Source: Candidatus Micrarchaeota archaeon | GTDB lineage: Archaea; Micrarchaeota; Micrarchaeia; Norongarragalinales; UBA8480 | Assembly: GCA_043805855.1 (NCBI GenBank) | Contig: JAZDHP010000008.1 | Span: forward strand, 1-43,784 | Direction of reading: 5' to 3' | Length of the DNA: 43,784 nt | The notes under the pieces: model-generated | What the model saw: only the letters and a program-made list of their open reading frames with translations | What the model was told of the DNA's origin: nothing | Database searches by the model: none | Made by a program: the position numbers and the translations under genes | Shown: piece after piece, positions 1 through 43,566 of the stretch | Layout: each line of letters starts with the position of its first letter | Position numbering within the stretch: position 1 is the stretch's first letter

Positions 1-109
1 GATTTGAACTCTCGAACTCCTAAGAGATAAGGTCCTAAGCCTTACGCATTAAATCCCTTTTTTCTTTTTTCAAAAGAAGAAAGGATTGACCAAGCTTTGC
101 TACCCCTGC
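1..109 (-). tRNA. tRNA-Leu(UAG), 3' end cut off by window edge; 36-nt intron at 21/22 (50-85)
   Basis: Minus strand: GCAGGGGTAGCAAAGCTTGGTCAA|intron|ATGCG TAAGG CTTAGGA CCTTA, long variable arm, GAGAGTTCAAATC. BHB: GGTC/GATT helix with AA|T and TA|A bulges. Confidence 0.9.
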
Positions 110-154
110 AATTATAGAATAAAAATAGGCGCGGTTAAGATTAAAGTTCTTTTG

Positions 155-2934: not shown

Positions 2935-3192
2935 TGCAACCGCCGGGATCTTCGAGCATTTCGGAAGTTTCTTTTCCCGAAGGCTTTTCTTTTCTAAAGA
3001 AAAGGCTTATCGAACCCGGACCGCAAGCTTTTTTCGGAAAACCGTTTTTTCGTTCAGTTTTCGATCGAGCCTTTTCGCATTTGCTTCTGGGCAAATGACA
3101 TCGCAAATGCGAAGTCAAATGCCGGCCAGGCATTTGCGATTACAAAAAGGCTCGCTTGGAAAGCTCGAATCATACCACTAGACCACGGCTGC
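2935..3192 (-). tRNA. tRNA-Gly(UCC) with two introns: 37/38 (3030-3156, 127 nt) and 59/60 (2949-3008, 60 nt)
   Basis: Acceptor GCAGCCG/CGGTTGC-A; anticodon arm CGAGC TTTCCA|A GCTTG; T arm CCGGG TTCGAT|T CCCGG. BHB helices TTTC/GAAA and TTCG/CGAA. Confidence 0.92.
3076..3141. repeat. Double-hairpin element (family 2), divergent copy nested in the tRNA-Gly anticodon intron
   Basis: gCATTTGC-ttctgg-GCAAATGac ... agtCAAATGCC-ggcca-GGCATTTGcgatt; same frame as copies at 3275, 9623 and 43492. Confidence 0.6.
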
Positions 3193-3244: not shown

Positions 3245-3347
3245 TTTTTCTTTGGGGTTGCAAGACCTTTCTTTGAGCACAAAGCAAAGCTTTGTAACTC
3301 AGACAAAAACTGGCGTTTTTGCTGATTCGTAAAAAGAAAGGGATTAC
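3245..3347. repeat. Free-standing family-1 palindrome carrying a family-2 insert (3275-3327)
   Basis: tttttctttggggttgcaagacctttcttt[insert]...aaaaagaaaggg aligns with the tRNA-Pro intron tttttctttgggactgaaagacttttcttttt...aaaaagaaaagg; insert nearly identical to 9623-9676. Confidence 0.75.
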
Positions 3348-6914: not shown

Positions 6915-7137
6915 TGCAGAGGGAGAGATTATCATGCTTTTTTTCTTTTTCCAAGGTTTTTCTTTTTTCAAAAAAGAAAAAGCTTTTGAACTCTCGAACT
7001 CCTAAGAGACAGGAACCTCAATCCTGCGCATTTAGTCATAAATACAAATTACAGTTGTTCTGTTATTGGTTTATCGCCAACTTGAGGACAACTTGTTCAT
7101 CTTTGTTTTTCTATTGACCTGGCTTTGCTACCTCTGC
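6915..7137 (-). tRNA. tRNA-Leu(GAG) with introns at 21/22 (7032-7113, 82 nt) and 59/60 (6929-6984, 56 nt)
   Basis: Acceptor GCAGAGG/CCTCTGC-A; anticodon arm CAGGA TTGAGGT TCCTG; BHB GGTC/GACT at the D-loop, relaxed motif at the T-loop; usual position between rpoD and L18e. Confidence 0.92.
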
Positions 7138-7165
7138 ATTTCACAGCGGTTAAAAGAATGCTATC

Positions 7166-7222: not shown

Positions 7223-7924
7223 TTATAACTCTTTTTTCAACTCGTCGGCTTTTTCCCGTAGAATTGAAACTGCTTTTTGTAATATTACGGCTGGCTCTTC
7301 GCCGTTGTAACTTTCAACGTAAAAAATGTACTCTCCTTCTTTTGGAAGCACGTTAACGTTTTCTGAAATTTGGCCAATGTCAAGTTTTTCCGGGTTAGTT
7401 ACTTTGCCGTTTTCGTCAACTGCACCTGTTGGAATTGTTTTCAACGCTTCTACCTTTGAACCTTTTATCTTTAAGTCAGGGTAGTGCGCATAGCTTGCAA
7501 AGCTGTTTTGAAACTTCGCGTGTTGCTTTGCAGTGCCAATTACCGCAGTTGCTTCGAAGCGTAAGTTTTGGTTTTCTGAAAGTGCAATTATTGGAATGTG
7601 AAGCAAAGCGGGTTTTATTTTGTCGTCTGTTGATTTTAAGTCTTTCGAATAAACTATCGTCGGTCCAGTTGCCTGTAGGCTAAAAGTTACCTTCACGTCG
7701 GGAGATGCTTTGTCATCGTTTGTTAATGGTATTAACGCAAGGCGAAGTGCAAGGTATTCGTTGAACATTGCTGAGTTGTTTTCAAAAAAGGTAACTTCGT
7801 CAATTGCAAAGTTTGGAATTGAACTGTTTATTATTCTTCGAAGTGCGTTGAGCATAGGGACAGAACAGTCCTTAACGTGGTAGTAAACGCCGCTTTTGGT
7901 TTTTCTAATTTGTTCGAACTTCAT
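7223..7924 (-). CDS. rpoD: DNA-directed RNA polymerase subunit D (Rpo3)
   Basis: NALRR, AIDEV.F.EN.S, RLALIPL, G..K.HAKFQ, FYVES. Confidence 0.96.
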   Translation of the reverse strand: MKFEQIRKTKSGVYYHVKDCSVPMLNALRRIINSSIPNFAIDEVTFFENNSAMFNEYLALRLALIPLTNDDKASPDVKVTFSLQATGPTIVYSKDLKSTDDKIKPALLHIPIIALSENQNLRFEATAVIGTAKQHAKFQNSFASYAHYPDLKIKGSKVEALKTIPTGAVDENGKVTNPEKLDIGQISENVNVLPKEGEYIFYVESYNGEEPAVILQKAVSILREKADELKKEL

Positions 7925-9547: not shown

Positions 9548-9848
9548 CGCCGGGACTGAGAAATTCGGAAAACCCTTCAGTTCCTATGCGCTATAAAATA
9601 ACAATTTAACCCTTTTCTTTTTGAGCACAAACCACTGGTTTGTGACTCAGACAAAAACCTTTGGTTTTTGCTGATTGGGTTGAAAGACTTTTTTCTTTTC
9701 GCAAAAGAAAAAAGGGTTTCGTTCGAACTCAGGAGCCCTTACGGGCACAAGCTTTCTGCGAGCGTGAGGTCTACAGTTTTACTGTCACCATAACAAGCAC
9801 TCGTCTGGATAATTCCAGGCCTGCGCATTACCACTCTGCCATCCCGGC
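9548..9848 (-). tRNA. tRNA-Ser(GGA) with introns at 37/38 (9754-9812, 59 nt) and 59/60 (9562-9721, 160 nt)
   Basis: Acceptor GCCGGGA/TCCCGGC-G; anticodon arm CAGGC CTGGAA|A GCTTG; long variable arm; T arm CTGAG TTCGAA|T CTCAG with BHB helix TTCG/CGAA; usual position upstream of S13. Confidence 0.92.
9623..9676. repeat. Double-hairpin element (family 2) inside the tRNA-Ser T-loop intron
   Basis: gagcacaaaccactggtttgtgactcagacaaaaacctttggtttttgctgatt; differs from 3275-3327 almost only at the hairpin apices. Confidence 0.85.
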
Positions 9849-30472: not shown

Positions 30473-30611
30473 AGCCCCCGACGAGAATAGTTCAAACTTT
30501 TTCTTTTTCCAAGGTTTCTTTTCCCAAGGCTTTTCTTTTCTAAAGAAAAGGCTTTTGAACTCGCGACCTTTTGCTTACCATGCAAACGCTCTACCACTGA
30601 GCTACAGAGGC
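30473..30611 (-). tRNA. tRNA-Thr(GGU) with about 67-nt intron at 59/60 (30487-30553)
   Basis: Acceptor GCCTCTG/CGGGGGC; D arm GCTC/GAGC; anticodon arm TTTGC ATGGTAA GCAAA; T arm GCGAG TTCAAA|T CTCGT; helix TTCA/TGAA with enlarged 3' bulge. Confidence 0.9.
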
Positions 30612-41755: not shown

Positions 41756-42077
41756 TGCAGGAGGAGAGATTTTCACTTAGAGGGAAATTTCTTTTTTCCC
41801 AAGGCTTTTTTCTTTCTAAAAGAAAAAAGGCTTTTGAACTCGAGAAACCAATTTCTTTTCTTCCACTCAAAGGCTTCTTTTCTTTCGCAAAGAAAAGAAG
41901 GGTTTGCTCTCGAACCCCTAAGGGACCAGACCCTGAATCTGGCGCATTTAATCGAAAGCCCTTTTTCTGTAGAAAAATGGCTTTCAGCCCGAAAAAGACA
42001 CTTACGTTCTTTTGGGATTGAAAGACCTTTTCTTTCCAAGAAAAGGGCTTTCCTTGACCAGGCTTTGCTACCCCTGC
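41756..42077 (-). tRNA. tRNA-Leu(CAG) with three introns: 21/22 (41948-42053, 106 nt), 53/54 (41839-41906, 68 nt), 59/60 (41770-41832, 63 nt)
   Basis: Acceptor GCAGGGG/CTCCTGC-A; anticodon arm CCAGA TTCAGGG TCTGG; BHB helices GGTC/GATT, CGAG/CTCG and TTCA/TGAA. Confidence 0.92.
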
Positions 42078-42162
42078 ATGATTAATTTATACTAACAAAG
42101 GTAATTGAAGCTTTTCTTTTGCAGTTATTGTAATTAAATACTTTCCCAGCTTATTTTCTTTC

Positions 42163-43463: not shown

Positions 43464-43566
43464 CACTTCGCCTCACGAAGTGAAAGGCCTTCAGCACAAG
43501 CCCTTAGCTTGTGACTGAGTCATCGAGCAAAGCTCGATGCCTATAACGAAGCACATCGCTTCGTTA
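43464..43566. repeat. Array of four short hairpins; the middle two (43492-43540) form a family-2 element
   Basis: cacttcg/cgaagtg, cacaagc/gcttgtg, catcgagc/gctcgatg, taacgaagc/gcttcgtta. Confidence 0.75.

Follow-up and report, generated by a model that had tools for sequence, protein, structure and literature searches.

A 70-nt module within the anticodon intron of a tRNA-Gly gene

In a Micrarchaeota genome, the anticodon intron of a tRNA-Gly(UCC) gene carries a 70-nt DNA module that is absent from the orthologous introns of close relatives and present elsewhere in unlike surroundings. The gene lies on the minus strand (3192..2935) of a 43,784-nt stretch of DNA, contig JAZDHP010000008.1 of assembly GCA_043805855.1, which we refer to as the window, and consists of three exons and two introns. 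The source genome of the window (G000; DPANN, Micrarchaeota) has heavily interrupted tRNA genes. We think it probable that the module inserted at the tip of a hairpin within the intron, is carried there as a passenger, and leaves with the rest of the intron in one step at the outer bulge-helix-bulge (BHB) motif. The tRNA introns of archaea are known to proliferate and to move, and the source of their gain in sequence is unclear. The occurrence of the same intron with and without the module in close relatives suggests one route to lengthening that leaves the splice motif undisturbed, and the introns of this lineage may be tolerant landing sites for small palindromic DNA.

The course of events that we propose begins with a scaffold shared by the genus, an intron of about 57 nt at tRNA positions 37/38 that has a one-pair (G-C) intron-side helix (h'), a side hairpin (level 2), and a basal hairpin (level 1). 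A two-hairpin DNA module of 70 nt (3072-3141) would have entered the 2-3-nt tip of the level-2 hairpin and brought the intron to 127 nt. The module would move or be copied at the DNA level, and its intron-borne copies would sit in the tips of polypyrimidine/polypurine ("family-1") hairpins, which are abundant in the tRNA introns of the source genome. Placed on a side arm remote from the bulges, it may be a passenger with no role in the tRNA, and an epsilon2-type endonuclease would cut out the 127 nt once at the outer BHB, with ligation to follow.

A sequence-only reading of the region had described three nested levels, an element in an element in an intron. Its placement of the intron at 3030-3156 was exact, with the BHB scan putting the motif of this 37/38 anticodon-loop intron (127 nt, minus strand) at 3156..3030. 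From 5' to 3' in the RNA, the intron consists of an A, G3155, the level-2 hairpin, an AUC linker, the level-1 hairpin, GAAA, and AA. The arms bounding the insert are a perfect 10-bp inverted repeat, CGAGCCTTTT (3066-3075, plus strand) and AAAAGGCTCG (3145-3154), as that reading had recognized; in the RNA sense, on the minus strand, they form the 5' arm CGAGCCUUUU (3145..3154) and the 3' arm AAAAGGCUCG (3066..3075) of the level-2 hairpin, which relatives keep. The AUC linker (3063..3065, minus strand) joins this hairpin to the level-1 helix and is invariant in the four orthologous introns aligned. By folding, the level-1 hairpin (3036..3062, minus strand) has the strands GAAAACUG (3062-3055) and CGGUUUUCC (3044-3036) around a 10-nt loop (3054-3045). 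The final C of its 3' strand pairs with G3155, which is the one-pair h' of the BHB, and its distal pairs vary in sequence among the four orthologous introns with the pairing kept. The remaining six nucleotides (3030..3035, minus strand) supply the 3' strand of the central BHB helix (GAAA, 3035-3032) and, in the 3' bulge, AA (3031-3030).

The level-3 module (3072..3141, minus strand) contains five octamers, GCAAAUGC/GCAUUUGC, in both orientations, and its two ends carry the same octamer in direct orientation. We set its ends where similarity to copies in other contexts stops. Its 3' end could lie anywhere from 3072 to 3076, as the module merges there with the A-run of the level-2 arm; the 70 nt obtained by similarity equal the difference in intron length between the source genome and its relatives. 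The module folds into two hairpins that are kept in the three homologous copies (in genomes G000, G001, and G003). Three of its 19 pairs are changed on both sides, a weak covariation whose score 40 of 500 shuffles attained, and the same double-sided changes would be expected of a DNA palindrome. BLAST searches of the 1.03-Mb source genome with the 127-nt intron, the 92-nt insert (3063-3154), and the 66-nt interior returned self matches only (E < 0.01). The interior therefore lies outside any repeat family of this genome, and of the "family-2 double hairpin" that had been proposed for it, the double hairpin holds and the family label does not.

The module is absent from orthologous introns

A search of 60 relatives with the entire precursor turned up the orthologous gene in G002 and G003, both members of the same genus, and an exact-pattern scan of metagenome contigs added a third case (L048). 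Contigs of four metagenome runs from four studies (X1, X2, X6, and X8), none of which spans the entire stretch, were aligned to the region; 20 runs were listed, each with at most 0.13 of the sampled words. The anticodon intron is 127 nt long in G000 versus 56 nt in G003 and 57 nt in both G002 and L048. The splice-site sequence is identical in all four, with an h' of one pair, and the three shorter introns retain the level-2 hairpin, the AUC linker, and the level-1 hairpin, with level-2 tips of 2-3 nt.

The metagenome runs extend this pattern. In contigs of X1 and X2, position 3075 is joined to 3145 with three other letters between them, a joint that skips 69 nt. Five orthologous introns (G002, G003, L048, and one contig each in X1 and X2) thus lack the module and are ~70 nt shorter, and two bear it, that of G000 and that of X2 record 13, which represents a second lineage. 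Record 13 and the module-less record 14 share the left flank as well as the altered letters at 3067 and 3069, but record 13 continues from the level-2 arm into the module. A single sample therefore contains close relatives of both kinds, with the module and without it. A finding that relatives carry only the full-length intron and never a shorter one would have spoken against nesting; for the innermost layer we found the reverse. The comparison with relatives had been expected to turn up a 35-nt intron, and the shorter forms that exist are those of 56-57 nt.

The hairpins of family 1 are informative about the direction of this change. Their 5' arm is polypyrimidine and their 3' arm polypurine, and we counted those with a perfect stem of at least 9 bp, a (C)CTTTTCTTT-type 5' arm, a AAAGAAAAG(G)-type 3' arm, and a loop of 2-4 nt. 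An exhaustive scan found 71 perfect CTTTTCTTT/AAAGAAAAG hairpins in the source genome and 0 in a shuffled genome; their stems are 9-12 bp long, and their loops are 2-4 nt in 71 of 71. We infer from sequence comparison that the module was inserted, not lost. Insertion is favored because five introns lack the module versus two with it and because all 71 family-1 hairpins have such small tips. It is also favored because the module exists without the arms (in G001) and because, from host to host, the arms vary and the module stays conserved.

The converse is that the long intron is ancestral and that relatives lost its interior by precise deletion between the hairpin arms. In a variant of this account, arms and interior are one element, from which internal deletion produced the short hairpin copies. 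Palindromes in DNA are readily deleted, and the four-taxon comparison is unrootable. Two points here weigh against insertion, namely that pairwise identities neither resolve nor root the small gene tree and that one loss is as parsimonious as one gain if the root is on the G000 branch. However, at least five of the lineages sampled would have to have lost the interior, unless G000 and X2 record 13 are basal together, and the uniformly short tips of the 71 hairpins, the interior that occurs in G001 without such arms, and the variation of arm sequences between hosts around a conserved interior all fit poorly with an ancestral long intron, which we consider very improbable.

Splice motif and predicted one-step removal

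The BHB scan over the precursor, made with strict registers at a loose threshold, listed 29 motifs. The T-loop intron of the same gene was the top-ranked and the anticodon intron came next. In the strict register of the anticodon intron, the exon-side helix h is the 5-bp anticodon stem, the central helix H is UUUC/GAAA, and the bulges are CA|A and AA|A; the anticodon introns of G002, G003, and L048 have the identical hBHBh' register. The single G-C pair of h' is followed by a three-way junction and may stack on the level-1 helix. Folded alone, the intron reaches -49.5 kcal/mol (z = -5.54), and 0 of 200 shuffles were as good.

Some features of the motif tell against its removal as proposed. A one-pair h' next to a junction is an atypical endonuclease substrate, and RNAfold gives the four H pairs a probability of at most 0.03 in all three length variants. 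We infer both splicing and one-step removal from sequence alone, and this too should temper the proposal. Neither the cloverleaf nor the BHB was reproduced by RNAfold of the entire precursor or of the anticodon arm. The H-pair probability is low because a six-A run offers a competing continuous stem, and for this reason we do not take the failure of RNAfold as evidence against splicing. Likewise, the idea that deletion of the 92-nt insert completes the BHB is borne out by the sequence register, but not by the single pair of h' or by the RNAfold probabilities of H.

The source genome contains a single match to PF01974. The endonuclease open reading frame (ORF), of 388 aa on contig C10, bears PF01974 and PF02778 and matches Protein Data Bank entry 4fz2 over its full length (E = 9.1e-131). 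According to the accessible part of PMC3488258, 4FZ2 is the epsilon2 EndA of Candidatus Micrarchaeum acidiphilum (ARMAN-2) and cuts strict and relaxed BHB motifs; the same source gives 56% interrupted tRNA genes in ARMAN-2.

We also considered sequential splicing of twintron-like layers. At the level-2 and level-3 borders, no BHB exceeded h = 2 and h' = 1-2, which is background among the 29 motifs listed, and a weak motif at 3141/3078 does not match the register of the level-2 stem. Sequential splicing was rejected since no credible BHB lies at the inner borders, and the inner layers are therefore not separate introns. Most likely, the 127 nt are removed in one step at the outer BHB by the epsilon2-type endonuclease, as judged from the motifs.

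Copies of the module elsewhere and the case for mobility

Searched with a 76-nt query, the module is present in 3 of 61 genomes (G000, G003, and G001), in one copy each (E <= 1e-6), and among 68 genomes of the order a core pattern matched 3. The copy of G003 (contig C62) has 82% identity over 76 nt and lies in the tip of a CCTTTTCTTT/AAAGAAAAAGG hairpin. This hairpin begins the ~245-nt T-loop intron of a tRNA-Ala(UGC) gene in the 16S-23S spacer, downstream of 16S, whose acceptor 3' strand and G3-U70 pair were located by sequence reading. In G001 (contig C91), the copy is intergenic, in a 325-nt region between two ORFs with a fold z-score of -6.35. Contigs of X1, X2, X6, and X8 match the window over 3071/3072-3141 apart from 0-4 differences, beyond which their sequences are unlike it; the loose ends of the X6 and X8 contigs read as family-1 hairpin arms of T-loop-type introns. 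The module thus has sharp ends in unrelated flanks in the G003 tRNA-Ala intron, at the intergenic site of G001, and in contigs of four runs. The intergenic copy also qualifies the suggestion that the spliced intron is a safe haven, which is reasonable but not exclusive.

The surroundings of these copies are themselves modular. In G003 (C62, locus L036, 20-430, minus strand), the tRNA-Ala(UGC) gene also has a 37/38 intron, and its T-loop intron is made up of the family-1 hairpin holding the 70-nt module, a double hairpin joined by CUGAGU, and more; the orthologous tRNA-Ala introns of G002 and G000 differ in composition. The region 690-960 around the G001 copy (C91, locus L037) is almost all hairpin modules, with a long-range pairing of CTAGCAAGAAGCAG and CTGCTTCTTGCTA.

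A covariance model (R1) built from the three copies was run against 101 genomes and recovered its own three training sequences, reverse-strand echoes, and a weak match in G048 (E = 0.0013), a genome of another family in the same order and the sole match outside the training set. The G048 locus (C24, locus L061, about 7774-7849, minus strand) has five GCAAATGC/GCATTTGC octamers directly after an ORF stop codon. We regard it as a similar octamer array and not as a clear homologue of the module.

The tRNA-Ala T-loop introns of G003 and G002 contain one asymmetric family-1 module in opposite orientation, which suggests that hairpin modules of the genus move at the DNA level. The 70-nt module may likewise be mobile at the DNA level, may prefer hairpin tips, and may be neutral for its host. 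Several observations weigh against this. Each of the three genomes with the module has a single copy, and none was found in G002 (91% complete). The module has neither terminal inverted repeats nor a target duplication by sequence reading, and Y1 transposase (PF01797) was found in 0 of 4 genus genomes, which are 62-92% complete, in a search that covered this transposase family and no other. The label of mobile element therefore draws on distribution alone. In addition, the orientation of the module relative to the tRNA is the same in 3 of 3 readable copies (G000, G003, and X6), which fits an RNA-level role as well as it fits chance (expected 1 in 4), and the high conservation of the module across contexts could reflect selection rather than recent movement.

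Two specific origins were tried. Mobilization of the IS200/IS605 type is unsupported given the Y1 count of 0 of 4, with the incompleteness of the genomes leaving room for it, and a degenerate module pattern matched 0 viral contigs, which gives no support to a viral origin.

The conservation of the module could be driven by function, with the module acting as a functional RNA, such as an intron-borne small RNA set free by splicing, or as a protein-binding array, such as a DNA operator of GCAAATGC octamers, kept at one copy per genome and lodged in different non-coding hosts. Exactly one copy is found in each of G000, G001, and G003; 0-4 differences over about 70 nt separate copies in unlike contexts, while the flanking intron diverges; and the orientation relative to the host tRNA agrees in 3 of 3 intron copies. 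The hairpins have survived the double-sided changes at 3 of 19 pairs, and a similar five-octamer array follows an ORF stop codon in G048. The available portion of PMC4090602 also provides a precedent, a box C/D RNA in an archaeal tRNA-Trp intron. However, the module matches no Rfam family at E up to 5 and has no UGAUGA (C box), and searches of G002 and of 64 other genomes in this order did not find it. The window shows no enrichment of the octamer (6 matches versus 4.3 expected), and the covariation has the weakness described above and would look alike in a DNA palindrome. On balance, a functional module seems to us quite unlikely. More widely, no UGAUGA occurs anywhere in 3030-3156, where the single CUGA is in the level-1 hairpin, and Rfam offered no family for the intron, the module, or the neighboring double hairpins, whether at the gathering threshold or at E up to 5-10.

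We also hold a more specific conjecture to be unlikely. The module may be a structure-targeted mobile element that specifically enters the apical loops of polypyrimidine/polypurine hairpins with no recognizable transposase, such that Micrarchaeota tRNA introns grow step by step as hairpin modules of this kind accrue. If this were true, real stacks of element in element in intron would be tolerated by a broad-specificity epsilon2 endonuclease, and there would be a concrete DNA-level route for the enlargement and sequence turnover of archaeal tRNA introns. How introns arrive is still called an open question in the accessible text of an Asgard survey (bioRxiv 10.64898/2026.10.13.758758).

Origin of the two-hairpin scaffold

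The outer layers of the intron present a separate problem. Without 3063-3154 (92 nt), the intron is 35 nt long, and G3155 and 3062-3055 pair with 3044-3036 over 9 bp including one G-U, so the sequence-only reading was right that a 35-nt intron with a fully paired outer helix can be cut from the longer one. This 35-nt form was absent from the 60 relatives searched with the precursor, from exact-pattern scans of genome and metagenome contigs, and from the contigs of the four runs, whose only joints are those that skip 69 nt and those that skip 127 nt. The latter joint, in a contig of X6 that joins 3026 to 3154, corresponds to the gene without the anticodon intron. The copies found have either both hairpins or no anticodon intron, and tRNA-Gly(UCC) genes without it occur in G001 (same genus), G004 and G007 (same family), and G014, G056, G057, and G060 (same order). 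These seven genes have at most a T-loop intron. With the short form found nowhere and with intron-less relatives, the intron therefore appears in the genus already with its two hairpins. A putative insertion of level 2 into a 35-nt intron has support from structure and none from an empty site. Of the successive insertions that had been proposed, then, entry of the module into level 2 stands, and entry of level 2 into a 35-nt intron is conjectural; two nested levels are shown, with a third unproven.

Under the three-level scheme, a 35-nt intron with a 9-bp h' gained the level-2 hairpin and AUC one base pair into its helix, and the module then entered at the tip. Consistent with this, removing the hairpin and AUC restores a continuous helix of 9, 8, 9, and 7 bp in G000, G003, G002, and L048, respectively, and two of the three sides of the junction have no unpaired bases. 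There are many hairpins of the family-1 type (71 perfect ones versus 0 in the shuffle), and both orientations are seen when congeners are compared, which means that these hairpins are able to move. The 37/38 intron of tRNA-Gly(CCC) in G048, putatively related, has an unbroken 6-bp h', and its 3' part resembles the present intron by BLAST (query 160-202). However, the missing short form counts against the scheme, and since every carrier has both hairpins and the others are intron-less, arrival of the intron with two hairpins may explain the pattern. The level-2 arms also lack the family-1 CTTT/AAAG core, and no target duplication is visible. We therefore view a third nested level as doubtful, though not far-fetched.

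The level-2 hairpin in fact has a mixed likeness to family 1. Its 10-bp stem has an inner 6 bp of CCUUUU/AAAAGG without the CTTT/AAAG extension of most of the 71 copies. The description of its arms as family-1-like was accordingly loose, correct for the AGCCTTTT base, the pyrimidine-then-purine order, and the 3-nt tip in relatives, but not for that extension.

Alternatively, levels 1 and 2 may not be nested at all and may derive from a diverged intron of the T-loop family that transposed to position 37/38, with the module alone inserted later. Both introns of the tRNA-Gly(UCC) gene have a AGCCUUUU-based pyrimidine-then-purine hairpin that starts 1 base (T-loop) or 4 bases (anticodon) past the 5' cut, followed by a hairpin starting GGAAAA/GGGAAAA and a tail ending CCGAAA. 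When three module-less anticodon introns were globally aligned with four T-loop introns, 12 of 12 pairs scored above mononucleotide shuffles (z 1.7-4.5), and 3 of the 12 were equalled by at most 1 of 300 shuffles; these z-scores are inflated, as shuffling destroys homopolymer runs. The near-identical T-loop introns in different tRNA genes recall the transposition described for Thermoproteales in the portion of PMC4090602 available to us. On the other side, BLAST sees no similarity between the two intron types, and their common features are of low complexity. A T-loop-derived scaffold is a possibility that we entertain tentatively, on about the same footing as the three-level scheme, short of adopting it.

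Comparison with known systems

Twintrons are group II/III introns within introns whose layers carry separate splice signals and are removed one after another. They resemble the present case in the nesting of intervening sequences and differ in that the tRNA-Gly intron has no internal BHB. Among small palindromic mobile elements, double-hairpin elements are known from Allomyces mitochondria. Repetitive hairpin-forming elements also occur in sponge mitochondria (PMC2800124, as far as its available text goes). Going by that partial text, the organelle elements and the module have in common a length of tens of bases, hairpins, a lack of coding capacity, tolerant sites, and a presence that differs between close relatives. 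In contrast, the module belongs to an archaeal chromosome, is single copy, and has as its target apparently a hairpin tip in a protein-spliced intron.

Among archaea, the closest system is that of ARMAN-2, for which the accessible parts of PMC3239211 and PMC3488258 describe multi-intron tRNA genes and introns with non-canonical BHB motifs. It shares with the present genome the phylum, the epsilon2 type of EndA, introns at 37/38 and in the T-loop, and many interrupted tRNA genes. A separable inserted module is not among the introns described in those parts, and the present h' is a single pair beside a three-way junction. In Thermoproteales, introns transpose between tRNA genes (PMC4090602, in its accessible sections), and near-identical introns occupy the same or different positions of unrelated tRNA genes, as the T-loop family does here; those sections also present the gain as one thought to occur at the DNA level. 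Whole introns move in that system, whereas here it is a 70-nt piece in the tip of an intron hairpin that is also found outside tRNA genes. The archaeal tRNA-Trp intron that contains a box C/D small RNA, reported in the same sections (PMC4090602), is likewise a 37/38 BHB intron with a separable structured unit inside, but our module has no C or D boxes and no Rfam match. A literature search, with most subscription journals outside its coverage, found no account of a discrete element within the hairpin of an archaeal tRNA intron.

The tRNA-Gly(UCC) gene and its detection

Exon 1 (3157..3192, minus strand) corresponds to tRNA positions 1-37 and contains the anticodon UCC, as identified by ARAGORN after in-silico splicing and by sequence reading. 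Exon 2 (3009..3029, minus strand), supported by the same splicing and by the BHB scan, covers positions 38-59. Exon 3 (2935..2948, minus strand), from sequence reading and ARAGORN after splicing, covers positions 60-73, and CCA is not encoded. After in-silico removal of 3030-3156 and the T-loop intron, ARAGORN calls tRNA-Gly(tcc), and the junction pair predicted by the splice motif (3009/2948) is among 25 pairs that yield Gly.

Standard finders miss the unspliced gene. Default ARAGORN found zero tRNAs over the window, and with introns of up to 300 nt allowed it found zero on the source contig. At the gathering threshold, the single Rfam match to a tRNA in the window is another tRNA at 30550-30611, and tRNA-Gly is without a match. 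Because standard finders miss tRNA-Gly(UCC) and ARAGORN with introns of up to 300 nt sees just 10 tRNA genes in the entire 1.03-Mb, 67-contig genome, gene inventories of genomes with such tRNA genes would be systematically incomplete. The missed gene is also the only one detected for its anticodon, with a heuristic anticodon-arm search returning this single UCC candidate in the genome, and it therefore presumably has to function. The tRNA-Gly(CCC) gene of the same genome (C26, about 890-1060) has D-loop and T-loop introns and no anticodon intron.

T-loop introns and other hairpin elements

The second intron of the gene (2949..3008, minus strand) is a 60-nt T-loop (59/60) BHB intron with a canonical family-1 hairpin. 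Its register has the 5-bp T-stem as h, UUCG/CGAA as H, and an h' of 3, with excision of 3008..2949. Near-identical T-loop introns occur at the same position in at least four tRNA genes of the source genome (contigs C19, C26, and C53; four extracted), and BLAST finds many further partial copies there. The family layout is a 5' splice site, a family-1 hairpin, a second hairpin, and an A-rich tail. More generally, family-1 hairpins cluster at tRNA genes, with a T-arm-like motif within 150 nt of 35 of 70 hairpins versus 208 of 2000 random positions.

Three repeats in the window (1-110, 6940-7140, and 41788-42078) resemble fragments of more intron-containing tRNA genes. They share a 5' half (the reverse complement of TTGACCAAGCTTTGCTACCCCTGCA), and their T-arm halves adjoin family-1 hairpins; ARAGORN and Rfam called nothing at these three places.

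The CUGAGU double hairpin seen in the G003 tRNA-Ala intron is a multi-copy element of ~55 nt, in which two 7-bp hairpins are joined by CUGAGU and closed by GAG/CUC. In the window it occurs at 3273-3326, 9621-9675, and 43491-43522, with one copy about 80 nt upstream of the tRNA-Gly gene, and further copies lie on contigs C1, C2, C4, C12, C31, C45, and C67 of the source genome. In G001, the same element flanks the 70-nt module on both sides.

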